Below, piece by piece: positions 6,001 to 64,000 of a DNA stretch of 64,000 bases (its first letter is position 1; the number at the start of each line of letters is the position of its first letter). The notes under the pieces are model-generated. The model had not been told where the DNA came from and made no database searches. It saw only the letters and a program-made list of their open reading frames with translations. This DNA comes from a bacterium (lineage in GTDB: Bacteria > UBA9089 > CG2-30-40-21 > SBAY01), in NCBI GenBank assembly GCA_040755795.1, contig JBFLXS010000002.1, forward strand, positions 5,109 to 69,108. Direction: 5' to 3'. Made by a program: the position numbers and the translations under genes.

Positions 6001-9000
6001 AGTAGGAACGATAGTAGAGGTAAATGGAGATGGATTTAGTGCTACAGAACTTATCCAAATTGATTTTGGTCAACATAGGACTATAACCACAGTAACCACA
6101 AATGAGATTGGGACATTTACGGTTACCTTTACGGTAGATACTCAGGTTTGTGGTGCAAAATCTGTTGTAGCCACCGGACTTAGTTCACAACAAATAGGTA
6201 CATCTACCTTTAATATTATTGCCGATATTATTCTTGTTTCACCAACTGAAGGAACGGTGGGAGCTCAAGTAGAGATACGCGGGACAGGTTATGATGCAAA
6301 CGAAGAGATAGAGGTTAGATTTGGTCAGACTGCTCCAATTTCAATTGAGCCTTTAGGCATATCCACTTCACCTGATGGGACATTTACTGCCTTCTTTAAT
6401 GTTGATACCCAGCCAGCAGGTGTAACAACCATAGTGGTTAGAGGTTATGATGGTTTACCATCGGCTGATGGAACATTTACTATCAAGGCAGTTATTACCG
6501 GTGTTGCACCGCGTAGTGGGTCTGTTGGGACAATAGTTACCATTCAAGGTGGTGGGTATCAACAAATAGAGGGAATTAGAATCGACTTTGGTTCAACGCA
6601 AACTATTGCTACGACTATGACTGATGGTAATGGTTCATTTACCGTTACCTTTACCGTCGATACCCAACCAACAGGTAGAACAACAATTACTGCCACTGGC
6701 TTAAATGGTGGAGCACCTGCTTATGATACATTCTCTATTACTGGTAATATAACTCAAGTTACTCCGAATACAGGTTCTGTTGGCACAATAGTTAGTGTTT
6801 ATGGAGATGGTTTTGGTCAGACAGAATTGATTCAGATTGACTTTGGAAAGACAATGACTATCGGGATGGTATCGACTAATGTTAATGGTACCTTTGGAAC
6901 GACATTTACCATTGATTCACAACATTGTGGAGTAAAGACAATTGTTGCTATTGGGATGATGAGTGAACAAAGAGGGACTATTACCTTCACGGTTACCCAA
7001 AGAATTACATCTATCTCACCGACAATTGGGACAGTAGGAACACAGGTAACCCTGATTGGTAATGGCTATGGTTCTCAAGAGAATTTGACTATTCGATTTG
7101 GTAATGCGACACCTATTATAAATCAAGGACCAACAAGTATAGATGGGACATGGACTATTTACTTTACAGTTGATACCCAGTATATTGGAATAAAGAATGT
7201 TACGGTGGAAGGACAAGCAACTGGAGTTTCTGATACCAGACAATTTAGAATTATACCTAATCTATATCTGGTAACACCGAATACAGGAACAGTAGGAACT
7301 CAAATTACGGTGAAAGGAAATGGTTATAACCCAACAGAATTTGTTCAGATTGATTTCGGGACATCTCTGGATATGGTAAATAATCCACAGCCAAAGACAG
7401 ATGCTGTAGGTAGTTGGACAACTACATTTATTATTAGTACCCAGCCTTATGGAGCAACTACTGTTAAAGCAACAGGTGTAGTCAGTGGAGAAAAAGCGGA
7501 TAATTTAACCTTCTTTATCTTACCAAATGTAGTTTTAGTTACACCAGCTCATGCTACGGTGGGGACTTTAATTACGGTTAGAGGTAATGGTTATGGGGCA
7601 TCCAGGACAATTCGGATAGAGTTTGGAACAACACAAACAATTCAATGGACATCTACCTATGCTGAAGGAAGTTTCACTACTACCTTTACCCTTGACACCC
7701 AACCTTATGGCAAGACAACCATTGTTGCCCATGAAGATGATATTTCTATTGAGGCTTACGGCACATTAAGTATTCAACCTAACATTGTTTCAGTTACACC
7801 TACGGAAGGAACGGTAGGGACAATAATCACTATTCGCGGAAATGGTTATGGTATAACTAAGACCTTGAGGATAGAATTTGGCACTACTAATAATATAAGA
7901 AATGTTATTAGTGATATAGAAGGAAGTTTCACGACAACATTTACGATTGATACCCAGCCGTATGGAACAACAACTATATTTGCACATCAAGATGATATTT
8001 CAATTAAGGCGACCGCAACACTGCGTATCTTACCTAATATCATCCTTATTTCGCCAAATTCAGGGACAGTAGGTCTGGTGATTACCGTTAAAGGTAATGG
8101 TTATAGTGCTACGCGAGCTATCCGAATAGAATTTGGCACGACACCTACCATTGTTATGGCATCGACCTATGCGGCAGGTATGTTTGAAACAACATTCACT
8201 ATTAATACCCAACCTTATGGTGTAACGACGATTATTGCTCATCAGGATATTACTCCACGACTTAAGGCGTATGGGACATTTGCTATTGAATCTAATATTA
8301 TCTTGATAAGTCCAAAAGAGGGGACAGTAGGAACGATAATTACGGTTGCTGGTAATGGATTTGTTGCCTCTCATACTATTAAACTTGATTTTGGTATAAC
8401 AACGACTATTCAAACAACATCGACTTATGCTCATGGCAGTTGGACGACGACATTTACCATTAATACACAACCTTATGGCATTACCACAATTAAGGCTTAT
8501 GGTAGTGAAGAGGCAGAAGGGACATTTACTATCCTGCCAAATATTATACTTGTAACTCCAGATGCGGCTACAGTGGGAACGGTAATTACTGTGGCAGGTA
8601 ATGGATTTGGTGCATCAAAGACTATCAGGATAGAATTTGGCACGACTCAGACAATTCAATTGACCTCTACCTATGCCGAAGGGAGTTTTTCAACGACATT
8701 TACTGTTGATACTCAACCTTACGGTAGGACTACGGTTACAGCCCATGATGATGACAATGTGATAGCGGCAACCAGTAGTGTTACGATTAAACCAGAAATA
8801 ATTCTGATTCAACCAGAAAAAGGCACTATCGGAACAACGGTTACCGTCAAAGGTAATGGTTATGGAGCGCACGAGATAGTCCAACTCGTGTTTGGCACCG
8901 CACCTACTCGTGATGTTGATACAACAGAAGGAGTAGGGTCATTTACATTTACCTTTACCGTAGATAGACAAACATTAGGGACAACGACTATTATTGTGAG

Positions 9001-12000
9001 GGGAATAAATACAGGTCAAAGCGTCCTTAAATATCACTTCCGTATAATTCCACATCTAACTGCGGTAATTCCAACTATTGGTTCAGTAGGGACAGTCGTT
9101 TTATTAAAGGGTGATGGTTATTTACAGAATGAGTTGGTGAGGATAGAATTTGGAACAACCAGAACTATAACTACAGTGACTGCAGATATAGATGGATTGT
9201 TTGAAACTACCTTTACTATTGATACGCAACCTTATGCTACAACTACTGTTAAGGGTGTGGTTGTTAGAACAGATGACTTCGCAGATAATCTGACTGTATT
9301 TATTACGCCTCGGATTATTCTTATTACTCCACCTGAAGGCTCAGTAGGGCAGATAATTACGGTTAGAGGTAATGGTTATCCTGCATCAAGCACTATTCGG
9401 ATAGAATTTGGCACAACACGGACAATTCATACCGTCTCGACCTATGCTGAAGGTAGCTTCACCACTACCTGGACAATAGATACCCAGCCTTATGGCACAA
9501 CAACACTTATTGCCCATGAGGATACTAATGCCATTAGTGATATAGGTAGTGTTACTATATTAGCTAACCTCTTTGCAGTTATTCCACCATCTGCACCAGT
9601 AGATACGGTAATTACTATTCGAGGTAATGGATATAGTGCAACGGAGCGTATCCAGATTGACTTTGGTTTAACAAAGAGTATCACCTTTGTTACTACTGAA
9701 TCTGTTGGTTCCTGGACGACTATCTTTACGGTTGATACCCAGAAAGTAGGAATAACCACTATTAAGGCTACGGGATTGAGTTCCGGACAGGTAGCCATTA
9801 ACTTCCTGACCATTACTCCAAGAATCTATCAAGTTACACCTGATTCAGGGACAGTAGGTTTGATAATTACCATTTCTGGTAATGGTTATGATGCCAGTCA
9901 ACTAATTCAGATTGACTTTGGCACAACACGAACAATTATGACCGTTACCGCTTCCGATGGAGGGTCGTTCACCACTACCTTTACCATTGATACTCAGCCT
10001 GCAGGTGTAACTACGATTGCGGCTCTTGGCGTAGGGTTAGCAGGACGCAGTGAGAAATACTTCACTATCCATTGCCGAATTATCCTGGTAACGCCATTAG
10101 AAGGAACCGTAGGCAGTTTTGTGACCGTGGCAGGTAATGGTTATGGTGCTAATGAAAAGGTTGATATTGTCTTTGGCACATCAGGCACTCTTACTACCAC
10201 CTCAACGGATAATATCGGTTCATTTACTACTACATTTACCATTGATACCCAGCCAGCAGGTAGGACGACGATTGCGGCAAGAGGGATGAGCACAAATGAG
10301 TTAGATAAAGCGACTTACACTATCCATAGCCGCATCATTTTGGTAACGCCGAAAGATGGGACAGTGGGTAGTTTGGTTACGGTGGCTGGTAATGGTTATG
10401 GTGCGGTTGAAGGAATAGATATTCTATTTGGGACATATGTCGGAACGATTACGGTTACCACTACGGATGCCACCGGGTCATTCACTACTACCTTTACTAT
10501 TGATACGCAACATTCAGGCACGACAAGTATTACCGCAGTAGGTAGAAGGACGGGTGAGCAGGCAGAAGATATTTACAGAATTCATGCTAATATCATATTG
10601 GTAACACCAACTTCAGGCACGGTAGGAACGATAATTACGGTAGCAGGTAATGGCTATGGTTGGTCAACCGAGACGATAACTATTCACTTTGGCACAACGG
10701 AGACTATTACCCAGGTAGTTTGTGAACAAAATGGTTCCTGGACCACTACCTGGACAATTGATACTCAACCAGCAGGTATGACTACGATTACCGCCATAGG
10801 TTATAAGACTCAAGAAATAGCACAGGCAACGATTACCATTCATGCTAATATCATTTTGATAACCCCACTTGAAGGCACAGTAGGTAGTTTGGTGACGGTG
10901 GCTGGTAATGGTTATGGTGCGATTGAAGGAATAGATATTACCTTTGGGACTTATGTGGGCACAATTGCGGTTACAACTACGGATGTAATTGGGTCATTTA
11001 CCGTAACATTTACTATTGATACGCAACATTCAGGAATAACGACGATTGGCGCCAGAGGTGTGAGAACAGATGAATATGATGATGGAACATACACTATTCA
11101 TGCACATATTATTACAGTTACTCTAACCAGTGGAACAGTAGGTAGTATTGTTACGGTTGCGGGTAATGGCTATGGTAATAGTGAACGGATAGAGGTAGTA
11201 TTTGGCACGAATAAGACCATTACGACTACTTCGACAGATGTCACCGGGTCATTTACCACAATATTCACTATTGATACACAGATTGCAGGCACAACAACCA
11301 TTAAAGCTGTGGGAATATCTACCAGTGAAACCGATGATGACATCTACCATATCCATGCTAATATTATCATAGTTTCACCTGATAGAGGAACAGTCGGAAC
11401 AATTATTACCGTAGCGGGTAATGGTTATGGTAAGCAGGAAGGAGTAAATATTGCCTTTGGAACAAATCCAACCATTGCCTGGACGACTACGGATACGATT
11501 GGTTCATGGACGACAACATTTACGGTTGATGTTCAACCTGCAGGTAGAACGACAATTGTTGCCACCGGGGTAGCTACAGCTGAAATCGCGGAGATAGGAT
11601 TTATCATTGGTTCAAAGATAACTGATGTCAGTCCGAATGTTGGGACAGTTGGATTGGTTATTGAGGTGAAAGGTTCAGGTTATATTGCCAGTGAATATAT
11701 TCGGATAGATTTTGGAACAACCAGAACGATTGTGATGACTAAAGCAGATGGGGCAGGGTACTTCTCGACCACATTCACGATTGATACTCAACCTGCGGGT
11801 AAGACAACGATTAAGGCAGAAGGATTACAACAGACTGTTGAGCCACCAATATCTACCTTTGAGATAAAGGCAAATATTATTAAGATAACATCAACTAAAG
11901 GCTCAGTAGGGAGCATAGTTACAGTTGCAGGAAATGGCTATGGTGCCAGTGAGCTAATCCAGATTGACTTTGGGACTACGCGAACTATTGTTACTATCTC

Positions 12001-22090: not shown

Positions 22091-25000
22091 TTATTTAGAA
22101 TTATTGGCAATATCTATTCGATTACACCTATTTCAGGGTCTGTGGGAACTATTGTTACCATAAGTGGCAATGGTTATCCTGCCTGGGACATAGTTCGAAT
22201 AGAATTTGGAACAACACCAACCATTCAACAGACATCCACTTATGCAGAAGGTAGCTGGACAACTACATTTACAGTAGATACCCAACCGTATGGGAAGACG
22301 ACAATTACGGCTTATGGAAGTGAGAAGGTATCCGGGACATTTACTATTTTACCCAATATTATTCTGATTACACCAACGCAAGGCTCAGTAGGGGCAATCG
22401 TTACAGTTAGAGGCAATGGTTATGTGGCATCTGGAACAATCAGCATAGACTTTGGCACTACACTAACAATCCAGTTGACATCTACCTATGCAGAAGGTAG
22501 CTGGACGACTACATTTACCATAGATACTCAACAATATGGCAGAACAACTATTATTGCTTCTGGAGATGGAATATCATCTGCTGGCACATTGACTATCTTA
22601 CCAGAGATAATACTAATTAGTCCAAAAGAAGGGACAGTAGGGACTATGGTGACCGTAGCTGGTAATGGTTATAAGGCATCAGAGGCAATTCATATAATCT
22701 TTGGGACATCACTAACGATTACTACTGCCTCAACGGATGCAATAGGGTCATTTACGACTACCTTTACCGTTGATGCTCAAAGTGTAGGCACAACTACTAT
22801 TACCGCTGTGGGTATGGATAGTGGCAAGAGTGTATCTAAGTATGAATTTAAGATAGTTCCACAATTGACTCAAGTTTCACCACCTCAAGGAACAGTGGGA
22901 ACAATAGTATCGCTTCAAGGAGATGGTTACCAGGCTAATGAGTTAGTTAAGATAGATTTTGGGACAACATTGACCATAACTACTATTAGTGCCAGTCAGT
23001 CAGGTTCGTTTGCAACTACATTTACCATAGATACGCAACCTTATGGAGTTACGACTATTAATGTAACAGGTCTTACATCTAAGGTTAGTTCTGCTAACTT
23101 AACCTTCTTCATTATGCCTAATGTTATTCTTGTTACTCCAACAGAAGGGACAGTGGGTAGAATAGTAACAATTCGAGGTAATGGTTATGGGGCATCAGAG
23201 ATAATTCGTGTAGAATTTGGCACCACACCGACTATTCAGTTGACATCTACTTATGCAGAAGGGAGCTGGACAACTACCTTTACCATTGATACCCAACCCT
23301 ATGGTCAGACAACGATTATTGCTTATGGTAGTAATAAAGCCGCAGGGACATTGGCTATATTATCGAATATCATCTTAATTTCACCGCCCTCAGGAACAGT
23401 AGGGACGATAGTAACCGTTCGAGGTAATGGTTATGGGGCATCAAAGACAATCCATATCGACTTTGGCACGACATCAACAATACAGATGACCTCTACTTAT
23501 GCCGAAGGGAGCTGGACAACTACCTTTACGATTGATACACAACCCTATGGTCAGACGACTATAGTTGCCTATGGCAGTGAACGAGCATCAGGGACATTTA
23601 CTATCTTGCCCAATATTATTCTTATTACTCCAACAGAAGGAACAGTAGGAACAATAATTACAGTTCGAGGCAATGGTTATGGTGCATCGCGAACAATCCG
23701 CATAGAGTTTGGAACAACACCTACAATCCAGTTGACCTCTACCTATGCCGAAGGGAGTTGGACAACTACATTTACTATAGATACACAACAATATGGTAAG
23801 ACGACCGTAGTGGCTTATGGAGATGGGCTTAAAGTAGAAGGGACAATAACTATATTACCGAATATCATTGTGATTACACCAACCGAAGGAACGGTAGGTA
23901 GAATAATAACCATAAGAGGTAATGGTTATGTTGCATCACGAACAATCCGCATAGAATTTGGAACAACACCGACAATCCAGTTGACCTCTACTTATGCCGA
24001 AGGTAGCTGGACTACGACCTTTACCATCGATACACAACAATATGGTAAGACGACGATTACGGCTTATGGAGATGTAATTAAAGCCGCCGGGACATTAACC
24101 ATATTACCCAATATTATTCTGATTACACCGACGCAAGGTTCGGTAGGGACAATTATTACTATCAGAGGCAATGGTTATGGTGCATCACGGACAATTCGTG
24201 TAGAGTTTGGGACAACACCAACTATTCAGTTGACATCTACCTATGCCGAAGGTAGTTTCACTACTACCTTTACCATAGATACCCAGCAATATGGTAAGAC
24301 AACTATAGTTGCTCACGGAGATGGACTTAAGGTAGAGGGCACTGTAACCATATTACCCAATATCATTTTGATTACACCAACTGAAGGAACGGTAGGAGCA
24401 ATAATAACCATAAGCGGTAATGGTTATGGTGCATCTCGAACAATCAGCCTAGACTTTGGCACTACACTAACAATCCAGTTGACATCTACTTATGCAAAAG
24501 GTAGTTTCACCATGACATTTACCATCGATACACAACCTTATGGCATAACAACTATTGTGGCTTATGGAGATGGTATATCATTCAAAGGCACAGTGACTAT
24601 CTTACCAGAGATAATACTAATTAGTCCAAAGGAAGGAACGGTAGGTAGTGTGGTTACTGTTTGTGGTAATGGATATAGGGCATCAGAGACAATTCATATT
24701 ATCTTTGGAACATCACTAACAATTGCTACTACTTCAACGGATGCCATTGGGTCATGGGCGGTTACCTTTACCGTTGATACCCAGAGTGTTGGGACAACTA
24801 CCATTACGGCTGTAGATATGGGTAGTGGCAGGAGTGTATCGAAGTATGAATTTAGAATAGTGCCACAGTTAACTCAAGTATCGCCACCTCAAGGGACAGT
24901 TGGGACAATAGTAACACTTCAAGGAGATGGTTACTTAGCTAATGAGTTAGTTAAGATAGACTTTGGGACAACATTGACCATAACTACTGTCAGTGCCAGT

Positions 25001-28000
25001 CAATCAGGGTCGTTCACAACTACATTTACCATAGATACTCAACCTTATGGTGTGACTACGGTTAAGGTAACAGGTCTTAGATCTAAGTTTAGTTCTGCTA
25101 ATTTAAACTTCTTCATTACTTCTAATATTATTCTTATTACCCCAACAGAAGGAACGGTTGGCAGAATAATAACCGTTCGAGGTAATGGTTATGGGGCATC
25201 AAAGACAATCCATATAGATTTTGGCACAACACCAACTATTCAATCAGTTTCTACTTATGCAGAAGGGAGTTGGACTACTACCTTTACGATTGATACACAA
25301 CCCTATGGTCAGACGACTATAGTTGCCTATGGAAGTGAACGAGCATCAGGGACATTTACTATCTTGCCCAATATTATTCTTATTACTCCAACAGAAGGAA
25401 CAGTGGGAACAATAATTACAGTTCGAGGTAATGGTTATTCTGCATCAGGGACAATTCGGATAGAATTTGGGACGACACCGACAATTCAATTAACCTCTAC
25501 CTATGCCGAAGGGAGTTGGACGACCACATTTACCATAGATACACAACAATATGGTAAGACGACCATAGTGGCTCAGGGTGATGGGCTTAAGGTAGAAGGG
25601 ACTGTGACTATCTTACCCAACATTATTCTGATTACACCAACAGAAGGAACGGTAGGAACGATAATTACAGTTTGTGGCAATGGTTATTATGCATCTCGAG
25701 CAATTCGCATAGAGTTTGGAACAACACCGACAATCCAGTTGACCTCTACCTATGCCGAAGGTAGTTGGACAACTACATTTACCATCGATACACAACAATA
25801 TGGTCAGACGACCATAGTTGTTCATGGAGATGGACTTAAGGTAGAAGGGACTATAACCATATTGCCAAATATCATTTTAATAACTCCGACAGAAGGAACA
25901 GTAGGGACAATCATTACTATTAGCGGTAATGGTTATGGGGCATCTCGAACAATCCGTATAGAATTTGGGACTACTCCAACAATCCAGTTAACCTCTACTT
26001 ATGCCGAAGGTAGCTGGACTACTACCTTTACCATCGATACCCAGCAATATGGCAAGACGACCATAATGGCTCACGGAGATGGACTTAAGGTAGAAGGGAC
26101 AATAACCATATTGCCCAATATCATTTTGATTACACCAACTGAAGGAACGGTAGGAGCAATAATAACCATAAGCGGTAATGGTTATGTTGCATCTGGAACA
26201 ATCCGCATAAAATTTGGGACTACACCAACCATTCAGTTGACCTCTACTTATGCCGAGGGTAGTTTCACGACTACATTTACCATCGATACGCAACCGTATG
26301 GAATAACAACTATTGTAACTTATGGAGATGGTATATCATTCAAAGGCACAGTGACTATCTTACCAGAGATAATACTAATTAGTCCAAAGGAAGGAACAGT
26401 AGGTAGTATTGTTACCGTTTGTGGTAATGGATATATGGCATCAGAGACAATTCATATTATCTTTGGAACATCACCAACAATTGCTACTACTTCAACGGAT
26501 GCCATTGGGTCATGGACGGTTACCTTTACTGTTGATACCCAGAGTGTTGGGACTACTACCATTACGGCTGTAGATATGGGTAGTGGTAGGAGTGTATCGA
26601 AGTATGAATTTAGAATAGTGCCACAGTTAACTCAAGTATCGCCACCTCAAGGGACAGTTGGGACAATAGTAACACTTCAAGGAGATGGTTACTTAGCTAA
26701 TGAGTTAGTTAAGATAGACTTTGGGACAACATTGACCATAACTACTGTCAGTGCCAGTCAATCAGGGTCGTTCGCAACTACATTTACCATAGATACTCAA
26801 CCTTATGGTGTTACTACGGTTAAGGTAACAGGTCTTACATCTAACTTTAGTTCTGCTAACTTAAACTTCTTCATTACTTCTAATATTATTCTTATTACCC
26901 CAACAGAAGGGACAGTGGGTAGCATAGTAACCGTTCGAGGTAATGGTTATGGGGCATCAAAGACAATTCGTATAGAATTTGGCACAACACCCACTATTCA
27001 ATTAGTTTCTACTTATGCAGAAGGTAGCTGGACAACTACATTTACCATAGATACACAACAATATGGTAAGACAACTATTACTGCTTATGGAAGTGAACAG
27101 GCATCCGGAACATTTACTATCTTGCCCAATATTATTCTGATTACTCCAACAGAAGGAACAGTAGGAACAATAATTACAGTTCGAGGCAATGGTTATGGTG
27201 CATCAAGGACAATTCGGATAGAATTTGGGACGACACCGACAATTCAATTAACCTCTACTTATGCAGAAGGGAGTTGGACGACTACCTTTACCATAGATAC
27301 ACAACAGTATGGTCAGACGACAATAGTTGCTCATCAGGATGACGATGGACTTAAGGTAGAAGGGACAATAACCATATTGCCAAACATCATTCTGATTACG
27401 CCAATTGAAGGAACAGTAGGGACAATTATTACCATAAGTGGTAATGGTTATGTTGCATCTCGAACAATCCGCATAGAGTTGGGGACAACACCGACAATCC
27501 AATTGACCTCTACTTATGCCGAAGGTAGCTGGACAACTACATTTACCATAGATACACAACAATATGGTAAGACGACCATAGTTGCTCATGGAGATGGACT
27601 TAAGGTAGAAGGGACTATAACCATATTGCCGAATATTATTTTAATAACCCCAACAGAAGGAACAGTAGGGACAATCATTACTATTAGCGGCAATGGTTAT
27701 GGTGCATCTCGGACAATCCGTATAGAATTTGGAACCACACCAACAATTCAGTTAACCTCTACTTATGCCGAAGGGAGTTGGACGACGACATTTACTGTGG
27801 ATACTCAACAATATGGTCAGACAACAATTATTGCTCATGGAGATGACCAGGGAATTAAGGCACAAGGGACATTGACAATATTACCGAATATTATTCTCAT
27901 TACCCCAACTAAAGGAACAGTAGGGACAATAATTACTGTTAGAGGTAATGGTTATGGTGCATCGCGGACAATCCGCATAGAATTTGGAACAACTCGCACA

Positions 28001-31000
28001 CACCAGTTAACATCAACCTATGCTGAAGGTAGTTGGACAACGACATTTACCATAAATACACAGCGATATGGAACAACAACTATTATAGCTCATGGAGATA
28101 TACTGGGAATTAAGGCTTATGGAACATTGACGATTGAATCAAATATTATTCTAATTACACCAACTGCTGGCACCGTAGGCAGGACTATTACTATTGCCGG
28201 TAATGGTTTTGGTGCAACGGAAAAAATACAGATTGACTTCGGCACAACTAAGAGTATTGCACTTCCAACATCAACGGCATTTGGGTCATTTAGTACGACC
28301 TTTACTAGAGATACCCAACCTTGTGGGACAACAACTATTAAAGTGACTGGAATAAGCACTAATCAAATACGATATGGTAGCATTACGATTCAACCGAATA
28401 TTATCAGTATTACACCTGTTTCTGGGACGGTAGGAATTGTTACAACCGTAAAAGGAAATGGATATGGAGCAAGTGAACAAATTAAGATTGACTTTGGGAC
28501 GACTTCAACGATTACAAGGACGACATCTAATGGCATTGGGCAATTTGAGGTGTCATTTACGATTATTTCTCAAGTTAAATGTGGTTCAACCACGGTTAGG
28601 GCAACAGGTCTTATATCAGGTGTTGAAGATACAGATGAATTTGTCATTACCGGAATTACCTTAGTTTCACCATCACAAGGAACGGTAGGGACGATGATTA
28701 CTGTGCGAGGTGCAGGATATAAACTTCCCGATCCAATGGGAGAAATAGTCTGGATTGATTTTGGAGCTACTACTCACATTGCTTTTGATATGAGTAATGA
28801 ATTAGGTGAATTTACGGTTATCTTTAGTATTAACACTCAAGTTCGTGGGACACATACTATTACAGCCTCTGGTGCGACAACAGGTAGAGTAGATACAGAT
28901 GACTTTAGGATTTTACCCAATATCCATTCAGTTACACCTACCGCTGGGACAATTGGAAGTTATTACATAACAATTATAGGTACTGGTTTTGATGAAAGTG
29001 GACCGGATGATTCGATAAGGATTGATTTTGGCACTACCGATAATGGTATAGGTGTAGGTATGGATCCTTTTACACCGGTACCGGAGTGGCCAAAAGCATC
29101 AGCTGGGGGAACATTTACCGCCATATTTCGTAATGATATTACACAACCAGGTGGAACGACGACTATTACGGCTATAGAAATTAAGCAATTTGAAGAAAAA
29201 TTCAGGGTTTATAATTACTTCCGTATCCTTGGTAAGATTACTAGCTACCAACCTACATCTGGCTCTGTGGGAACCAATGTTACTATAGAAGGTAGTGGTT
29301 ATGGTGCTACAGAAACAATACAGGTTGATTTTGGGACGACGATGACTATTGGGATAACAACTACATCTGCTTTAGGTAACTTTAATCTTACCTTTACCGT
29401 TGATACTCAAGTCTATGGGACTACCTCAATATCTATTATCGGGCTGAGAACAGATATAGTAAGACAAGAAGAATTTATTGTTATTCCGAATATTACGGTT
29501 GTTTCACCATCTGTTGGTAAGATAGATAGTAGTGTAACTATTTATGGTAATGGTTATAAGGCATCAGAGACATTACAGGTTGACTTTGGAGTTACTTCCA
29601 GTATCACCTTTGTTAGTGCAGATTATCAGGGTAACTTTATGGCTATATTTACTGTTTCACAACAAGGTGCAGGCACAAAGACAATTACTGTTACAGGAAT
29701 TGAATCACAAGGGAAAGCGACTAATGTATTTAGCATATTGGCAGGAATTAATAGAGTTTTACCTATGTCTGGTACTGTGGGAACGACGGTAACAGTAGAG
29801 GGTACAGGTTATACCCCGAATACGGAAGTAAGATTCCACTTTGGTGGAGAACCGGATATAAATCCTCCCCCTCGACCAAAAGTTAGTACCTATGGTACTT
29901 TTACCGGCACCTTTATTGTTAATACTCAACCTTATGGGACGACAACTATTACTGCGGTAGATACTGGTGTACCATCCGTATCAAGCTATGATTACTTCCT
30001 GATTACTTCTAAAATTATTTCTATAACACCCGAATCAGGAACAATAGGTAGAAATGTTACTGTCGAAGGTAACGGTTTTGGGCAAAATGAACTTATACGC
30101 ATTAGTTTTGGGACAACTATAAGTGTAACATTTATAACTACTACAGGGGATGGAACTTTCTCAACTACCTTTACTATTACACCACAACCATATGGGACAA
30201 TTACTATTAGGGCTTTTGGACTTAATACAGCGGCGGAATCTCAAGGTATATTTATTGTTAAAGGGAAAATTATTAGTGTAACACCTACAAAAGGGACGGT
30301 AGGAACTATAGTTACTGTAGAAGGGAATGGTTATGCGGCAATAGAATTAATACGGATTGATTTTGGAACGAATAGAACATTAACTATGGCTACAACAGAC
30401 GATATGGGTGTATTTAGGGCTATATTTACAGCAGATACACAGGCTTATGGAACGACAACGGTCTTTGCTTATGGATTTAATTCTAATCAACTTAAGGAAG
30501 ATGTATTCTTTATCATTACACAACGAATATTTGCTCCTTCACCTACCGTAGGGACAGTGGGAACAATAGTAACGGTTACCGGTAATGGATTTATGGCTTG
30601 GGAAGGACTCCGTGTTGATTTTGGAACTACTCGAACAATTGAAGTAGATGCAGCTGATGAAGATGGGGCATTTGTTCTTACCTTTAAGGTTGATTCCCAA
30701 CCATATGGTGTAAGAACTATTTTGGTTACCGGAATGAATTCACAGGCTACGGATAGCACAACATTTGAAATGAGACCTTCTATTACTTTAGTTACACCTT
30801 CTATTGGTTCGGTGGGAACTATAGTTACTGTTGAAGGTGCTGGACATTATTATGTTACTCCGATAGCAGAAAAAGTATTTATTAAACTTAATTCAATTTC
30901 AATGGCGACCGTAACGGTTTCTGTTGTAGGTACCTATAGTGTTACCTTTACAGTTAATACTCAATCTTATGGAAGTAAGACGGTTAGTTCTAAAGGACAA

Positions 31001-46000: not shown

Positions 46001-49000
46001 GTTACACCTGATAGAGGTAGTGTGGGGACAATAATTACTTTGAAAGGAAATGGATACAAGGCGAATGAAACAGTTCAAATTGACTTTGGTAATTATTCTA
46101 CTATCACTACCACTTCAAGTGATAACATTGGTTCATTTACTACAACCTTTACTATTGATACCCAGAAATATGGTGTTACAACTATTATTGCCAGAGGATT
46201 AGATTCAAGTTATGCTGTTGATGACCTGTTTATTATACCTAATATCATCACCGTTACGCCTTCAATTGGAACTGTGGGAACGATAATAACCGTAGCCGGT
46301 AATGGTTATGGGGCGTCAGAGACAATAACCATTAGTTTTGGAACACATCCAACTATAACGACTACTTCTACGGATGAAATAGGGTCATTCACGACTACCT
46401 TTACGATAGATACCCAGAGATATGGAACAACAACGATTATTGCTACCAATATGAGTTCGGCAGAAGGCTACTTCTTCATTATTCCAAATATAATTAACAT
46501 TACACCTAAGTCTGGAACTGTGGGCACAATAATAACATTGCAAGGTAATGGATTTGGAGCCTCCAAGACTTTAAGCATAGACTTTGGAACTACATCTACT
46601 ATTCAAATTACCTCTACTTATGCCGAAGGCAGCTTTACCACTACCTGGACAATTGATACTCAACCTTATGGTATCACCACTATTACTACCCATGGAAGTA
46701 AGGATGCATCAGGAACATTTACCATCTTACCTAATATCATTCTGATTACACCGAGTTCAGGGACAGTGGGAACGATAATAACCGTGAGAGGAAATGGCTA
46801 TGCCGCATCGGATACGGTAAGAATAGCATTTGGTATCACTCCAACAATTCAATTAGTTTCTACAGAAATATATGGTAGCTTCACTACCACATTTACTATA
46901 GATACTCAACAATATGGCATAACAACGATTGTTGCTCATGGAGATGCACAAGGCATTTCGGCTCAAGGGACTATTAGTATTCAACCCAATATCATTCTTG
47001 TTACACCAACTTCAGGAACCGTAGGAACGATAATAACCTTAAGAGGAAATGGATATTGGGCATCCGAGACAATCAGGGTAGAATTTGGGACTACGCCAAC
47101 TATACAACTAACCTCTACTTATGCAGAAGGTAGTTTCACCACCACATTTACTATAGATACACAACCTTATGGCATAACAACTATTATTGCTCATGGAAAC
47201 GGGATATTATCCGCAGGCACATTAACCATATTACCTAATACCATTTTGATTACACCGAGTTCAGGGACAGTAGGAACGATAATAACTGTGAGAGGGAATG
47301 GATATGAGGCATCGTCGGTAATCAGGGTAGAATTTGGGACTACACCTACAATACAACTAACTTCTACCTATGCCGAAGGCAGCTTTACCACTACATTTAC
47401 TATTGATACACAACCTTATGGCATAACAACTATTATTGCTCATGGAAACTGGATATTAGCAGAAGGGACATTAACCATATTACCTAATATTATTCTGATT
47501 ACACCAGATTCAGGGACAGTAGGAACGATAGTAACATTAAGAGGAAATGGTTATCGGGCATCCGAGAGAATCAGGGTAGAATTTGGGACTACGCCAACAA
47601 TACAGATAACCTCTACCTACGCAGAGGGAAGTTTCACCACCACATTTACCATAGATACACAACAGGCGGGTATAACAACCATTATTGCCTATGGAGACGG
47701 AATATTAGCCGAAGGAACATTAACTGTGTCATCGAATATTGTTCTGGTTACACCAGATTCTGGAACAGTGGGAACAGTAATAACCGTGAGAGGAAATGGA
47801 TTCAGGGCATCAGATACGATAAGGATAGATTTTGGAGTAACTCGAACAATTCAATTAACTTCTACTTATGCCGAAGGGAGCTTTACTACTACATTTACGA
47901 TTGACACGCAAAACTATGGTTCTACAACAATAACAGCATCAGATTTAGATTCACGGCAGGCGGTTAGATACTTTAAGATACTGCCAGAACTTTGGTTTGT
48001 AACTTCAACCGAAGGAACAGTAGGAACTATAGTAACGATAAGAGGGACAGGATATGCGGCGAATGAGTTAGTTTATATCCACTTTGGAACGACAAAGACG
48101 ATAACAACTACATCTTCAGCCAATGAAGGTAGCTTTACCACTACATTTACTATTGATACACAACCTTATGGCTCTACAACCATAACAGCCTTAGGATTAA
48201 GTTCAGATAAGGCAAGCAACTACTTTAAGATACTATCTTCAGTTTATGAAGTTACACCGATTGAAGGGACGGTAGGAACAATCGTTACCATCAGTGGAAT
48301 GGGATATGGGGCGTTCAAAGACATAACCATACATTTTGGCACAACTAATACCATTACTACTACTTCTACGAATATAGCAGGGTCATTTACTACAACATTT
48401 ACCGTAGATACACAACCTTATGGCACGACAACGATAACGGCATTAGGTTCTGTGGCAATTAACCACTTCAAGATACTGCCAGAGTTGTGGTATGTCAATC
48501 CAGCAGAAGGGACAGTAGGTAAGGTAGTAACAATTCGAGGGACAGGCTATGCGGCGAATGAGTTAGTCTATGTCCACTTTGGCACAACTAATACAATAAC
48601 GACAACATCTGTAGATATAGAGGGTAGCTTCACAACAACATTTACCATAGATACACAACCTTATGGCTCTACAACCATAACAGCGGTAGGTTTGAGTTCC
48701 GGTCAGGCAAGCAATGACTTCAAGATACTGCCAGAATTATGGTATGTCAGTCCAGTAGAAGGGACAGGAGGGAGTATAGTAACAATTCGAGGGACAGGCT
48801 ATGCGGCGAATGAGTTAGTCTATATTCACTTTGGCACGACTAACACGATAACAACTACTTCTTCAGCCAATGAAGGTAGTTTCACCACTACATTTACCAT
48901 AGATACACAACCTTATGGTTCTACAACGATTACAGCATTAGGTTTGAGTTCAGATAAGGCAAGTAATTACTTTAAGATACTATCTTCAGTTTATCAAGTT

Positions 49001-61000: not shown

Positions 61001-64000
61001 ACGGCTATTAACTATTTTGTCATAAATCCAGAAATATACTCTGTAACTCCAACTCAAGGGACAGTTGGAACAATAGTTACCATTAAAGGTAGTGGTTACA
61101 GGCTAAGTGATGACATACAGATAGATTTCGGCACTACATTAACTATTATGGTTGCTTCTTCTAATGATGCAGGGACATTTACCGCTACCTTTACTATAGA
61201 TACTCAAGCCTACGGAACTACAACCATAACCGCCAAAGGTTCAGCAGTGGGAATAGCGGTGAATTACTTCAAGATAACTCCAGATGTATTTTTTGTTTCA
61301 CCAACAGAGGGCACCGTTGGGACAATAATTACTATTCGTGGTACAGGTTATGCCGGTGGTGAGACAGTAGATATTCATTTTGGCAGGGCTAAGACCATCA
61401 CCACAGCGTTAGTAGATGCACAGGGCACTTTCACTACTACCTTTACCATAGATACACAACCTTATGGAACAACTACAATTACGGGAGTTGGTCCCACCTC
61501 TTCGCAGGCAATTAATTACTTTAAGATATTATCAGAGATAGTTTCGGTTACTCCAACGGAAGGAACGGTAGGAACAATAGTTACTATCTGCGGAACTGGT
61601 TATAGAGATACAAAGAGAGTTTATATCCACTTTGGCACGACTAATACTATTACAACAACTACTTCAGATTATGAAGGTTCATTTACTACTACCTTTACCA
61701 TTGATACTCAACCTTATGGCACAACAACGATAATGGCAGTAGGGTCTCCACAGGCAATCAACTACTTCAAGATATTACCGGATGTTATCTTTGTCAGTCC
61801 AACATCAGGCACGGTTGGAACTATAGTTACTGTTCGTGGAACGGGTTATGCTGGCACAGAGGAAGTTTATATCCACTTTGGCACTACCAATACCATAACT
61901 ACTACCGTATCCGCTATACAGGGTAGTTGGACAACGACATTTACCATAGATACCCAATCTTATGGAACAACTACAATAATAGCCGTAGGATTAAAGTCAG
62001 GAGAGGATTATAATTACTTCTTTATAAATTCAATGACTTATCTAACTCCTTTACAGGGAACAGTAGGTCAGTTGGTAACCATAAGGGGTGAAGGTTATAA
62101 TGATGGAGAGACTATAGCTATACACTTTGGAGAGATTTTGACTATATGTACTGCACTGGTGGCTCAAGAAGGTTCATTTACGGCTATATTTACTGTTGAT
62201 ACTCAGATTTTTGGGACAAAGACAATAACCGTAGTAAGTGAGATTGAAACGAGAACTCATTTGTTTAAGATAAGAGGTGGAGTGATAGTATCGCCCAGAA
62301 GTGGAATAGTGGCGACACTTGTTACCCTGTATGGAACAGGATATGGAGCCAGTGAGCCAATCATCATAGGTTTTGGTGGTAATCCAACCATATCTTGTGC
62401 AACAACCTCTGATAATGGGACATTCTCAACGCAATTTATGGCTGATGTTCAGGTACCTGGTCCGGTGGTAATTACTGCCAGTGGTTTGATAACCGGTGAA
62501 GTAGCATCTACTACCTTTACGCTGGTCAGAATATTCTTAAATCCAAATGTTGGCTATGGACAAAAAGATGCAATTACTCTAATCTCAGGTAAAGGATTTA
62601 TGGAGGGAGCAACCGTAACTGCTAATTCTATTAAATTCAATGGTGCATTTACCGCACAACATCCCCCAATAACTATTCAACCAGGAGGTAATTTACCAAC
62701 AACTACTTTGACATTACCAGCGATGCCGTGGGGAACTTATACGGTTCATATGATAGTTTCAGGAGAGGAATTTGTATTTGCAGATAGTTATAGAGTTATA
62801 CCGCGGATTATAATGAATCCAGGTGCGGGTAGTGGTCAGACGGGTAATACAAGTACTATAACAGGTTCAGGATTCTATGGGACGACAGGTGGAACGACTA
62901 TACTAATGAATAGTATTAAGGTAGGTGGCAATCCGACTGAACATCCAGAAGTGGTTGTATCTGATGTGGGAACATTCTCAGTTACAGTTGCTCTGTCACA
63001 ACTTAACCAAGCAGGGGGTTATGCGGCAGATATTGTCCAGACTAAGGAAAATATAGGTTCATGGACATATAGATTTGAAAATGTCTATTATCGAACTTCA
63101 CCACCTCAGTTACGATGGACAGGAGAGTCTGGTTATACACAGGATGGACTTAATCCAGAAGAGGGTCTAAATACTACAATTTATACTTACCGTATAAGAT
63201 ATTACGATTTTGATAATGATGACCCATTACCTGGCTATCCAAAGGTGATTATTTATAAAGGTACTAATGTTTATGCTTCATTGACTATGACAAAGATAGA
63301 TAATTATCTACCGAGGTCAGCTCCACGATATGAAGTTCAAACAACCCTTCCAGATGGAATGTACTCCTATTATATTGTGGCGTATGATAAATGGGGAGCG
63401 CCAGCCAATGGTGTCTCAGGAGTATGGCGTGAGGGACCAAGAGTAGGACAATTCCCAACACTTAGATGGGTAGGCGCACCTGACTATATCAATACGGGTG
63501 TATCTCCAAAAGTTGGCTCTGAGGGAACGCTATTTAATTATCGGGTAGTGTATCGAGATTCAAGTAATCGGCCACCAGTATTTGGGACAAATAGCCCAAT
63601 AGTGATTATAGAAAAAGATGGATTACCCTATGCCACTTATACTCTGGGTACTATTTCCTTGCTGGGAGGAACTGCAACTCCTTATCGAGATGGTGTGATT
63701 TATGGTACTGAGACTTCTCTTCTGGTAAGAGGTTCATATACACATAGATTTAAAGTACAAATAGCCATAGGAACGGATACATTTATAGAAGCACAGGGAA
63801 CGCCAACATTAATCAATTCAGGACCGACAGTGGTAACCCTTCCATATCTTAGTTGGTTAGGAGCACTAGGATATACGGATGATGGCGTAGAACCCGATAT
63901 TGGACAGATAGGAGATATCTTTGAATTTAAGGTGAAATATACAGGTTCTACTGCACCTGAATTGATACGACTATATCTTATGAGTCAAAATGGAACAATT
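2..64000 (+). CDS. Internal fragment of a giant repetitive protein gene, partial at both ends, at least 21,333 codons in this window. It encodes tandem IPT/TIG-like Ig-fold domains (extender array) followed by a distinct distal domain module. Probably an extracellular or cell-surface fibrillar adhesin-like protein.
   Basis: Phase-2 reading frame on the + strand hand-translated with no stop codon. Checked in register at 68, 9983, 22022, 36485, 50051, 59942, 63842 and 63998 (all congruent to 2 mod 3). Every unit-length difference is a multiple of 3. The ORF track lists no phase-2 + strand ORF, as expected for a stop-free frame without an in-window terminus. Variation between units is mainly codon third positions and conservative substitutions. 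Neither start nor stop codon is in the window. Confidence 0.9.
22598..24601 (+). repeat. Higher-order repeat copy A (8 units) of the 22.1-28.1 kb block
   Basis: Begins with the PEIILISPKEG and QLTQVSPPQG marker units and ends with the ...GISFKGTVT unit. The next copy starts at 24602. Confidence 0.75.
24602..26359 (+). repeat. Higher-order repeat copy B (7 units)
   Basis: Same ordered succession of unit variants as copy A with one unit fewer. Nucleotide identity to A and C is visibly above 90%. Confidence 0.75.
26360..28140 (+). repeat. Higher-order repeat copy C (7 units). The last unit decays into the diverged units that follow.
   Basis: Same marker pair at 26360-26893. Carries a 3-aa in-frame insertion (HQDDDGLKVEG) in one unit. 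The array diverges after about 28140 (NIILITPTAGTVGRTITIAGNGFGATEKIQIDFG). Confidence 0.7.
28141..35340 (+). repeat. About 29 diverged IPT/TIG-like units, including atypical units with loop insertions (28.7-29.9 kb) and a degenerate unit at 30.84-31.0 kb
   Basis: Hand translation. Same motif skeleton, low inter-unit identity. Confidence 0.8.
35341..56000 (+). repeat. About 82 near-identical 252 bp / 84 aa units. Consensus ELWSVVLAEGTVGTIVTIRGTGYAANELVYIHFGTT(K/N)TITTTSAAIEGS(F/W)TTTFTIDTQPYGSTTITAVGL(N/S)SG(S/E)AINDFKILP. Includes embedded variant units and sub-HORs.
   Basis: Adjacent units, e.g. 38413-38664 vs 38665-38916, differ at only a handful of nucleotides. Antisense artefact ORFs (MPRIVTIVPTVPSASTTDHNSG...) recur with exactly 252-bp or 504-bp spacing (38251 and 38503; 39007 and 39259; 40239-end and 40743-end). 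Confidence 0.9.
56001..62040 (+). repeat. About 24 moderately diverged units related to the 35-56 kb family (..IRGTGYAG(T/L)EE(V/I)YIHFGTT(K/N)TITTTVS(D/A)IEGSWTTTFTIDTQPYG..), punctuated by 'ITPDLWYV(S/N)P..G.VRIDFG' and 'ITGGIRISPTTG..VFGNGYA.TEQVRVDFG' marker units
   Basis: Hand translation. Marker pairs at about 56010/56270, 57760/58020 and 60290/60520. Confidence 0.8.
62041..62527 (+). other. Two terminal, degenerate IPT/TIG-like units closing the extender array (INSMTYLTPLQGTVGQLVTIRGEGYNDGETIAIHFG... and RGGVIVSPRSGIVATLVTLYGTGYGASEPIIIGFGGNPTIS...)
   Basis: The motif skeleton is retained but strongly diverged. They are the last units carrying G-x-G-Y-x-x-x-E and F-T-V-D-T-Q-like motifs. 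Confidence 0.7.
62528..63091 (+). other. Two domains with a more classical IPT/TIG signature (RIFLNPNVGYGQKDAITLISGKGFMEGATVTANSIKFNG...YTVHMIVSGEEF and RIIMNPGAGSGQTGNTSTITGSGFYGTTGGTTILMNSIKVGGNPTEHPEVVVSDVGTFSVTV...)
   Basis: Pattern P-x-x-G-x-x-x-G-x-T-x-I-T-(L/I)-x-G-x-G-F ... (V/I)-K-(F/V)-(N/G)-G ... V-x-V, as in IPT/TIG/plexin-type Ig-like domains. Sequence family differs from the upstream array. Confidence 0.5.
63092..64000 (+). repeat. At least 3 copies (third truncated by the window) of a different repeat of about 120-130 aa: P-x-L-(R/S)-W-x-G-x-x-x-Y-x-x-x-G-(V/L)-x-P-x-x-G-x-x-x-T-x-(F/Y)-x-(Y/F)-(R/K)-(I/V)-x-Y-x-D...P ... (V/I)-x-(I/L)-x-x-x-G-x-x-Y-A. Unnamed beta-rich repeat, a candidate distal functional module.
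   Basis: Copy 1 at 63092-63451 (PPQLRWTGESGYTQDGLNPEEGLNTTIYTYRIRYYDFDNDDPLPGYPKVIIYKGTNVYASLTMT...). Copy 2 at 63452-63838 (FPTLRWVGAPDYINTGVSPKVGSEGTLFNYRVVYRDSSNRPPVFGTNSPIVIIEKDGLPYATYTLG...). Copy 3 from 63839 (LPYLSWLGALGYTDDGVEPDIGQIGDIFEFKVKYTGSTAPELIRLYL...). Confidence 0.6.

Follow-up and report, generated by a model that had tools for sequence, protein, structure and literature searches.

The window, the whole 64-kb stretch of DNA analyzed here, is occupied by one open reading frame of 21,333 codons, which contains no stop and is open at both window ends. The coding frame holds 0 stop codons across the whole window, against 855–2595 in the other five frames. Neither terminus of the gene lies in the window, and the gene extends beyond both ends, to more than 21,333 codons and more than 64 kb. 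Segmentation of the translated frame with an HMM, which sets the unit boundaries used throughout, resolved about 246 tandem Ig-like (IPT/TIG-like) units of about 85 residues, followed by a different C-terminal region.

We used AF2 to explore the fold of the units. A single unit was modeled with seven strands (pLDDT 92.1) and three consecutive units (pLDDT 92.6, pTM 0.79) were joined by 2-residue linkers, and each unit is predicted to form an Ig-like seven-strand β-sandwich. The units carry the motif GTVGT...GxGY...FG...TFTxDTQPYG. The best unit scores against the Pfam TIG family (PF01833) were 15.4 and 13.6 bits, below the gathering cutoff of 20.9; multi-unit queries gave no match to Pfam TIG, and the units gave only spurious or sub-threshold Pfam matches. 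The best PDB sequence match of the unit profile was CGTase domain D (1cyg 497–538, E = 0.003). Among the homologues, P0002 and P0003 carry a precomputed PF01833 assignment, and NCBI lists P0009 as an "IPT/TIG domain-containing protein". The link of the units to TIG is distant, and we therefore call them no more than TIG-like. Foldseek searches with the one-unit model returned generic Ig-like and E-set matches, including CGTase, CARDB, PKD and BIg, none of them at E ≤ 0.001, and those with the three-unit model returned generic Ig-like matches only, with SiiE and MpIBP fragments among them.

We also considered a Thr-Gln ester-bond domain (Pfam TQ PF18202/VaFE), for which only summed scores of 33.2 and 25.3 bits were obtained, with no single stretch passing. 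Such domains, as described by Kwon et al. in 2014, reportedly have a conserved catalytic His, Asp or Glu, with the Thr on the first strand and the Gln on the last. In our units every His, Asp and Glu column falls short of 90% conservation, and the conserved Q62 sits between strands 5 and 6 rather than on the last strand; the ester-bond domain in the PDB (7ui8) scores only E = 0.64. We rejected this assignment.

Within the array, we concentrated on a block of 24 units (U87–U110, 22100–28132), in which Tandem Repeats Finder (TRF) placed a 249-bp array at 23120–28071 (19.7 copies, 70% matches). The original prediction described 24 near-identical copies, which overstates their likeness. A repeat search found 18 in-register copies of one "STYAEGS" family, with mean identities of 77% in nucleotides (66–91%) and 80% in amino acids, and the remaining six units belong to two separate marker subfamilies, M1 and M2, which are only 53–58% identical to the family in nucleotides. 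The 18 family units are spaced, start to start, by 246, 765, 246, 246, 249, 249, 249, 765, 246, 249, 249, 249, 765, 246, 255, 249 and 255 bp, and each of the three 765-bp gaps accommodates one family unit and a two-unit marker pair. The marker pairs begin at 22595, 24599 and 26357, each 3 nt from its predicted position (22598, 24602 and 26360), and the unit map reproduces exactly the predicted periods of 2004 bp (8 units) and 1758 bp (7 units). There are three higher-order copies (H1–H3), as had also been predicted. They are contiguous, head to tail and in frame, with lengths of 2004, 1758 and 1770 bp. Amino acid identity is 70% across adjacent pairs in the block and is 80–92% between adjacent family units. 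The array ends with U110, and the following unit, U111, shares no more than 60% identity with any unit of the block.

Table 1 Features of the repeat array, with coordinates in the window.
Feature	Coordinates	Strand	Basis
Single open reading frame, about 246 units and C-terminal region	2–64000	+	Stop counts; HMM segmentation
Older diverged paralogue of the same syntax, U30–U37: five family units, M1-like and M2-like units (8786–9301), one family unit	7517–9556	+	Segmentation; dS about 1–1.7; tree
U87, diverged family unit leading into the block, 3' two-thirds A-like	22100–22345	+	Segmentation; identities; per-third comparison
Higher-order copy 1 (H1), U88–U95, 2004 bp, 8 units: P, M1, M2, A, A', B and two less clearly assigned	22346–24349	+	Segmentation; identities; tree
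Marker pair M1+M2 of copy 1, U89/U90, 86 aa each	22595–23110	+	84–89% nt identity to other marker pairs, 50–61% to family units
Higher-order copy 2 (H2), U96–U102, 1758 bp, 7 units: P, M1, M2, A, B, C, D	24350–26107	+	Segmentation; identities; tree
Marker pair of copy 2, U97/U98	24599–25114	+	96% and 98% nt identity to U104 and U105; dS 0.09 and 0.03
First arm of a 186-bp exact repeat, the longest in the window (second arm at 26588–26773)	24830–25015	+	Exact-repeat search
Higher-order copy 3 (H3), U103–U109, 1770 bp, 7 units, closest to copy 2	26108–27877	+	Segmentation; identities; dS; tree
Marker pair of copy 3, U104/U105	26357–26872	+	Segmentation; dS
U110, terminal family unit where a fourth P is expected; diverged, 75–82% nt identity to other units	27878–28132	+	Segmentation; identities; tree
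Dispersed patch of the 249-bp family, U183–U188, embedded in the 252-bp array	46478–47977	+	TRF row 46578–47898, period 249; segmentation

Similarity within the block follows the higher-order register. Between H2 and H3, in-register nucleotide identities were 96, 98, 88, 91, 89 and 86%, against about 70–80% for out-of-register family pairs, and the in-register mean of 0.89 ranked first of 120 permutations (permutation mean 0.80). The in-register pairing also ranked first of 120 for H1/H3 and second for H1/H2, and the lag profile of the block peaks at 7–8, 14–15 and 22 units. In a neighbor-joining (NJ) tree the units cluster by their position in the higher-order repeat, with the topology (H1,(H2,H3)), in the clades (88,(96,103)), (89,(97,104)), (90,(98,105)), (99,106), (100,107), (101,108) and (102,109). 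U35 and U36, from the older copy at 7517–9556, are the outgroups of M1 and M2, while U94, U95 and U110 have no clear place in the tree and are weakly assigned to higher-order positions. The unit phylogeny and the register comparison had both been proposed as checks of the original prediction, and both came out in its favor. The block is a higher-order tandem repeat, with in-register similarity, a position-wise phylogeny and at least two complete head-to-tail copies.

The 6-kb stretch is older and more patchy than had been supposed. Marker-unit dS is 0.03–0.09 for H2/H3, 0.40–0.52 for H1 and at least 1 (about 1–1.7) for the copy at 7517–9556, and the H1 duplication is clearly older than that of H2/H3. 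For the family units, in-register synonymous divergence is 0.23–0.9. The block had been called homogenized, a term that does not fit these values; homogenization would have been patchy, through short-tract conversion. Third codon positions hold 288 of the 426 in-register differences, and dN/dS of 0.05–0.3 points to strong purifying selection. From this one sequence, in which copy number, conversion direction and timing are all read, we infer duplications of several ages. The youngest duplicated tract, at roughly 24551–25150, contains the 186-bp exact repeat. An alternative order of events, in which an older H2/H3 duplication was followed by one recent conversion of about 600 bp between H2 and H3 over the marker pair, is disfavored on one ground alone, the match between the high-identity tract and the marker pair in their boundaries.

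The copies differ from one another by 2% to 25%, in a mosaic pattern in which tracts connect all three of them, and the units appear to have been made mosaic by short-tract gene conversion. A pure birth-and-death process would instead combine old block duplications with independent point mutation, and would ascribe the uneven divergence to different constraints on marker and family units. Such a process is consistent with the divergence of all copies, the uniformly low dN/dS and the fact that no two units in the window are identical. However, H2/H3 third-position divergence is 9/172 in the markers and 99/414 in the family units (Fisher p = 1e-8), an approximately 4.6-fold difference between units of the same duplication. 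Identity also switches abruptly inside units, where the nearest neighbor changes from one third to the next; in U92, for example, the final third matches U99 at 99%, whereas nothing matches the first third at more than 78%. In a site-permutation test, 10 of the 153 unit pairs had runs of identity at p ≤ 0.01, where about 1.5 were expected. Furthermore, for most in-register differences (12–29 of 22–33) both alleles are present in out-of-register units, and private substitutions are few in each unit. We consider birth-and-death without conversion to be quite improbable.

We compared the block to the 252-bp array of the same gene. The original prediction held the two unit families to be unrelated, but they share the Ig-like domain of about 85 residues and its consensus, and are 55% identical in nucleotides and 52% in amino acids, the latter above the background of 42% between units. 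They are one domain in two diverged versions, and a patch of the 249-bp family even sits inside the 252-bp array. No cyclic shift brought out positional homology between the 249-bp and 252-bp higher-order repeats (0.552–0.565), and the claim of separate block amplifications is supported. Within the block, youth is confined to the H2/H3 marker pair. Likewise, recurrent growth of the array is borne out by duplications of the same syntax at three or more time depths, while growth that is still ongoing is not demonstrable from one sequence.

A period of 7 units recurs in both young arrays, with lags of 7, 8 and 15 in the 249-bp block and of 7 and 17 in the 252-bp array, where 85-aa marker units are spaced by 7, 7, 10 and 7, and the order of family units followed by M1 and M2 is shared with the old copy and with a further MAG. 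A period of about 7 domains might be functionally required, for lattice or partner spacing as in titin, rather than an accident of recombination. We treat the shared period as a coincidence, since the two higher-order repeats lack positional homology, and 7 from two independent draws is only a mild one. The lag-7 signal is absent from roughly 160 older units (flat at 52–54%), H1 has 8 units, the 252-bp array also has 10- and 17-unit periods, and one relative (L013) has one old 4-unit period. There is a slim chance that the period, which arose independently in the two young arrays, and the conserved family–M1–M2 syntax mark a selected structural super-repeat of a micrometer-long bacterial surface fiber, by analogy to the 7/11-domain super-repeats of titin; the number of blocks would then tune the length of the fiber, quantum by quantum, from strain to strain. 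A structurally required period as such seems to us hardly credible.

It is very improbable that one or two real copies were inflated in assembly, by concatenation of strain variants of the higher-order repeat or misjoining of repeat reads: arrays of this gene family do break short-read assemblies, with contigs of relatives ending inside them, and the H2/H3 differences are mostly synonymous, as for strain variants, but collapse or inflation is unlikely because the longest exact repeat anywhere in the window is 186 bp, leaving every unit individually distinguishable, and the 64-kb frame has no stop or frameshift, the copies are unequal in length, H1 is clearly older than H2/H3, and concatenated haplotypes would not give mosaic divergence with tracts shared by all three copies.

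The block is very probably a genuine in-frame higher-order repeat in a giant gene, built by at least two head-to-tail duplications of a 7–8-domain block, with layered ages and a later conversion mosaic. We propose that a block with M1 and M2 markers among "STYAEGS"-family domains was duplicated head to tail two or more times, the likely driver being unequal homologous recombination, in which similar units paired out of register while the reading frame was kept. The dispersed copy at 7517–9556 (dS ≥ 1) would form the oldest layer and would predate the split from the MAG lineage with the same family–M1–M2 order; the duplication separating H1 from H2/H3 (marker dS about 0.45) would form the middle layer, and that of H2/H3 the youngest. 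Conversion tracts of about 80–190 bp may then have shuffled the family units, in and out of register. Short conversion tracts would account for the mosaic and for the eroded in-register identity elsewhere, while in-register identity would be kept only in the marker pair because the markers have no other similar donor. Strong purifying selection would keep each copy a foldable domain, and each block would add about 590–670 residues to the rod-like extracellular stalk of a putative surface fiber or adhesin.

This mechanism is an ordinary, textbook one, the usual way in which such repeat genes grow, and it changes no open question; it is the gene itself that is notable. Giant repeat genes are almost invisible in short-read MAGs, and the window is a rare intact TIG-like array of about 246 domains, probably from a Candidatus Desantisbacteria-like lineage. 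The array suggests, at the resolution of single units, how growth proceeds in a bacterial gene longer than 64 kb, by repeated duplication of multi-domain blocks, scrambling of the copies by short-tract conversion and selection that preserves the domain fold. The marker domains serve as an internal clock that separates the age of duplication from conversion.

Periscope proteins and fibrillar adhesin stalks, including SasG/Aap, Rib, the SHIRT arrays of Sgo_0707, Esp and CdrA (PMC8201768, Whelan et al. 2021; PMC8286594, Monzon et al. 2021), are similarly built of tandem, similar β-sandwich domains that form a rod, and the likeness of the units in DNA sequence allows recombination within the gene to insert or delete complete domains without breaking the frame. 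Neighboring domains in multidomain proteins are usually less than 50% alike (PMC8201768), a level that our adjacent units far exceed. Unlike in Periscope proteins, DNA identity is much lower here (mean 77%, with only one tract of about 0.6 kb at 96–98%), the repeat quantum is a 7–8-domain block with internal markers rather than a single domain, and the protein, from an uncultivated, non-pathogen lineage, exceeds them in length by one to two orders of magnitude. Periscope proteins also vary in repeat number from strain to strain and are surface proteins, anchored at one end and carrying a functional domain at the other.

Titin contains a triplicated multi-exon block of Ig domains, with copies more than 99% identical, and its A-band super-repeats of 7 and 11 domains are tied to thick-filament geometry; nebulin has a triplicate region. 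These giant chains resemble ours, of Ig-like domains, in having a multi-domain block in three tandem copies that are more similar in register than neighbors are. The "triplicated" region of TTN is mentioned in PMC11514934. Whereas titin is eukaryotic and exon-structured, the array here is a bacterial single reading frame with copies 2–25% diverged and a period of no apparent structural meaning. As in α-satellite higher-order repeats, monomers differ by 20–45% within a block and blocks are far more alike in register, and unequal crossing-over and conversion would be the generators; unlike satellites, the array is coding, apparently under strong purifying selection, and has only three, substantially diverged copies.

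Giant bacterial surface proteins include MpIBP, with about 120 BIg repeats, SiiE, with 53 BIg, and the T9SS gliding adhesin SprB. The protein here is likewise very long, predicted to be extracellular and dominated by Ig-like repeats, but is unrelated in sequence to the repeats of the BIg, RTX and SprB types, and its chain of at least 21,333 residues with one domain type is longer than any of the three. The giant genes of Omnitrophota encode multi-enzyme "Archaeovorins" or dockerin-type proteins, and assemblies of the latter fragment at repeats (bioRxiv 10.1101/2023.11.21.568195), as do those of the relatives of this gene, whereas our array is TIG-like and neither multi-enzyme nor dockerin-type.

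Finally, we investigated relatives of the gene, searching loci with the 29-unit family alignment. They are fragmentary giant reading frames, on contigs that are reading frame throughout, in Candidatus Desantisbacteria-like MAGs. The nearest DNA match to the window is 82% over 336 bp, and metagenome relatives are only 47–51% identical, which makes them of no use for dating. A search of the relatives for young higher-order repeats found, on short-read contigs, only diverged units (at most 64–76% aa identity) and the old 4-unit period in L013, and so is uninformative on recurrence. In one relative (L002/P0046), M1-like and M2-like units come after four family units and are closer to U97/U98 than U35/U36 are. 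The C-terminal 483 residues had no homologue in a word-indexed search of 5.8 billion proteins; by tblastn on fetched loci, and only so, the C-terminal region proved homologous to L019 and L023, at 33–35% amino acid identity. The L019 frame appears to end in a T9SS-like tail, with 20.4 bits to TIGR04183 (sub-threshold, cutoff 23) and 41 bits to the C-terminal part of the PorU model, and a PorV/PorQ-family gene lies directly downstream (NF033709, 141 bits, cutoff 90), an arrangement similar to SprB-type cargo. By analogy to these relatives, whose C-terminal region is conserved only at the identity given above, we infer a role as the stalk of a surface fiber or adhesin. The relatives also have N-terminal sequences that, judged by eye, resemble signal peptides.

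One open reading frame spans the window on the + strand (nt 2-64000; 21,333 codons, 0 stops), and the remaining five frames contain 855-2595 stops. No internal ORF of at least 150 aa was listed. Since the stop-free frame continues beyond both window ends, the gene is longer than 64 kb and its product is among the largest bacterial proteins reported. Using an HMM built from the window's own sequence, we segmented the translated frame into ~246 tandem units, most of them 82-86 aa long (range 79-105 aa), with the consensus I..I..VTP..GTVGTIVT..GNGY.A.E.I.I.FGTT.TI....T...G.FTTTFT.DTQPYG.TTI.A.G. The C-terminal region carries instead a ~120-aa repeat with a motif like W.G..GY..DGV.P, for which we found no Pfam or NCBIfam match and 0 matches among 5.8 billion proteins searched by word index. 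The gene as a whole is more remarkable than the 249-bp block that it contains.

Within the block, TRF places a 249-bp array at 23120-28071. A repeat search found 18 in-register copies of the 'STYAEGS' family, the spacing of which is broken three times by 765 bp, each gap holding one family unit and two marker units. Successive marker pairs start exactly 2004 and 1758 bp apart, corresponding to periods of 8 and 7 units, and the higher-order repeat (HOR) coordinates and lengths of the original prediction are correct within 3 nt. The phasing that fits best starts each HOR copy (H1, H2, H3) with the unit ahead of the marker pair.

Features of the giant gene and its relatives (U, Ig-like units counted along the translated window; P, unit preceding the marker pair M1 M2; A-D, family positions; L019 and L023, related contigs)
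Feature	Position	Strand	Composition or basis
249-bp block, U87-U110, 24 units	22100-28132	+	HMM segmentation
Marker-pair starts	22595, 24599, 26357	+	HMM segmentation
H1, U88-U95			P M1 M2 A A' B x x
H2, U96-U102			P M1 M2 A B C D
H3, U103-U109			P M1 M2 A B C D, order as H2
U87, U110			Diverged family units flanking the HOR copies
Older diverged block, including U35/U36	7517-9556	+	Family x5, M1-like, M2-like, family x1
252-bp array	35372-57262		Own higher-order structure
249-family patch, U183-U188, six units	46478-47977		Middle of the 252-bp array
C-terminal region, different and also repetitive	62522-64000	+	Change of sequence past nt 62,522
C-terminal homologous regions	L019 1577-7180; L023 2563-7782		Sequence comparison with window 62522-64000
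Sorting-domain-like tail, then PorV/PorQ-family gene	L019 6281-8325		

We compared the HOR copies unit by unit. H2 and H3 share 96, 98, 88, 91, 89 and 86% nucleotide identity in register, and 91% in the units preceding the marker pairs (U96/U103). H1 shares 82-90% with H2/H3 in register, and out-of-register family pairs mostly share 70-80%. Mean identity peaks at lags of 7 (81%), 8 (76%), 15 (81%) and 22 (75%) units and is 64-70% elsewhere. When identity was summed over five family positions for all 120 permutations, the in-register assignment ranked first for H2/H3 and H1/H3 and second for H1/H2. A neighbour-joining tree clusters units by block position with a consistent topology (H1,(H2,H3)). 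Thus, the comparison of in- and out-of-register similarity and the unit phylogeny both bear out the proposed higher-order structure. Contrary to the earlier claim, the 24 units are not near-identical: only 18 belong to the family, averaging 77% nucleotide (66-91%) and 80% aa identity, and the six markers form two further subfamilies with 53-58% nucleotide identity both between the two and to the family. The longest exact repeat within the whole window is 186 bp (24830-25015 = 26588-26773). Nor are the 249- and 252-bp families unrelated, since they share the domain consensus and 55% nucleotide and 52% aa identity, against a 42% aa background among old units.

The differences between H2 and H3 are unevenly distributed, with third-position divergence of 9/172 for markers versus 99/414 for family units (Fisher p = 1e-8). 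The HOR alignment is a mosaic, in which some tracts are 95-100% identical between H1 and H2 where H2 and H3 share just 80-85%, and the reverse is also seen. In a Sawyer-type site-permutation test, 10/153 family-unit pairs had shared runs at p <= 0.01 (~1.5 expected), including the out-of-register pairs U106-U108 and U88-U95. The nearest neighbour changes between thirds of a single unit: in U92, the final third shares 99% identity with U99 and the first has no match above 78%, and U93 is 99% identical to U107 in its first third and closest to U101 in its middle third. Most units have 1-5 private substitutions among 139 polymorphic sites, and of the 22-33 in-register differences, 12-29 have each allele represented in out-of-register units. 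We propose that the H2/H3 duplication was recent and that conversion from out-of-register donors may afterwards have eroded the family units; marker units, without such donors, would have been spared. The alternative is an older H2/H3 duplication followed by a single recent conversion across the markers. We favour recent duplication with family-unit erosion because the youngest high-identity tract (~24551-25150) nearly matches the extent of the marker pair. The mechanism is ordinary, comprising unequal recombination, short-tract conversion and purifying selection. An assembly artefact is an unlikely source of the three copies, given a frame intact across 64 kb, no exact repeat above 186 bp, unequal copy lengths and divergence that is graded and reticulate among all three.

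Nei-Gojobori estimates place the events at different depths. For the marker units, dS is 0.09 and 0.03 between H2 and H3, 0.40-0.52 between H1 and H2/H3, and 1.0-1.7 between the markers and U35/U36 of the older copy. In-register family units give 0.23-0.61 for H2/H3 and 0.35-1.1 for H1 versus H2/H3. Across all comparisons dN/dS is 0.05-0.34, and third codon positions hold 288/426 in-register differences; the copies are evolved, selected paralogues rather than error-laden copies. Block duplication is indeed recurrent, at no fewer than three time depths. Of the predicted recent, recurrent amplification, recurrence therefore stands and 'recent' fits the last event only (marker dS 0.03-0.09).

At the DNA level, nothing matched the window better than 82% over 336 bp. 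U33, in the older block, is 82% nucleotide and 89% aa identical to a 537-bp MAG contig (L001/L003, isolate Yes70-11), and no public sequence matches the window more closely in any part. A 1548-bp contig of another MAG (L002 = P0046) consists entirely of ORF and encodes four family-like units, then an M1-like and an M2-like unit. These share 61-68% aa identity with U97/U98, more than the 48-55% that U35/U36 share with U97/U98; therefore, the domain syntax and the split between old and new blocks predate the lineage split. L002 (1-1548, MAG099) is labelled Cyanobacteriota and L005/L008/L016 Nitrospira, which may be mis-binning since the best protein relatives come from Desantisbacteria MAGs.

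The 252-bp array has 85-aa marker units (U142, 149, 156, 166, 173, 199, 216 and 233) spaced by 7, 7, 10, 7, 26, 17 and 17 units, with identity peaks of 87-88% at lags 7 and 17 and in-register pairs of up to 98%. It has the 7-unit period in common with the 249-bp block and no positional homology to it. The U183-U188 patch, whose units share 72-84% identity among themselves and up to 80% with U96, represents a dispersed duplication or an insertion within the gene.

We used AlphaFold2, with the window's own units as alignment input, to explore the fold. One unit was predicted to form a seven-strand β-sandwich (pLDDT 92.1), and in a three-unit model (pLDDT 92.6, pTM 0.79) two residues separate the last strand from the first strand of the next unit. 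Structure searches returned only generic Ig-like/E-set domains and multi-Ig chains, including CGTase, CARDB, PKD, BIg, plexin IPT, SiiE and MpIBP. The units score below the Pfam TIG threshold. Domain D of cyclodextrin glucanotransferase, which is TIG-type, is the best PDB sequence match of the unit profile (E = 0.003), and homologues are annotated with PF01833 or named 'IPT/TIG domain-containing protein' by NCBI. The TTTFTxDTQPYG motif (positions 54-65 of every unit, e.g. the unit at 25361-25609) contains a Gln that at least 90% of ~150 units share, and gives summed weak scores to the NCBIfam VaFE repeat models and to Pfam TQ (Thr-Gln ester bond). On sequence grounds, an ester cross-link is unlikely, as the units have no conserved His and no single-domain TQ/VaFE match passes threshold.

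A full HMMER scan found the unit in 8042 representative proteins (656 with E <= 1e-30). Ten top matches were looked up, and those with names are mostly partial proteins from Candidatus Desantisbacteria MAGs. Contigs of GTDB relatives are one ORF end to end, as in the 57-kb and 33-kb contigs of MAG Yes70-11 (~80 units per 20 kb), and many short ones terminate inside arrays. The C-terminal region is 33-35% identical to its counterparts in L019 and L023, with 30-36% aa identity to the C-terminal parts of these two relatives. The L019 ORF ends in a T9SS-type sorting-domain-like tail (TIGR04183, 20.4 bits, under the 23-bit cutoff; C-terminal part of PorU, 41 bits), and a PorV/PorQ-family outer-membrane protein gene lies directly downstream (141 bits), which suggests T9SS-like export outside Bacteroidota-type organisms. 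Several relatives begin with signal-peptide-like sequences, judged by eye. From these features of its relatives, we infer that the gene product is probably a secreted, surface-attached fibre, in which case each HOR would add ~590-670 residues of rod.

The block resembles satellite DNA in its formal higher-order repeat and differs in being coding and under purifying selection. The nearest biological concepts are the stalks of Periscope proteins (PMC8201768) and fibrillar adhesins (PMC8286594), in which similar DNA repeats recombine and change domain number. Titin has a triplicated Ig-domain block, which is also close. Relative to these stalks and titin, the gene differs in scale (at least 21,333 residues of one domain type), in a duplication quantum of several domains that includes internal markers, and in how low the DNA identity is for most copies. 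Omnitrophota giant genes have been described with other architectures (10.1101/2023.11.21.568195).

Finally, P0004, a partial 4177-aa protein from a MAG named 'bacterium', has an N-terminal signal-like sequence, an NHL/β-propeller-like region and, at the C-terminal end where it is truncated, tandem units that are nearly identical; this is a further young array cut by assembly. Units 25-33 of L013 (Yes70-11 NODE_59) have an old 4-unit period, with lag-4 pairs at 58-75% aa identity; thus, block duplication has taken place elsewhere in the gene family as well.
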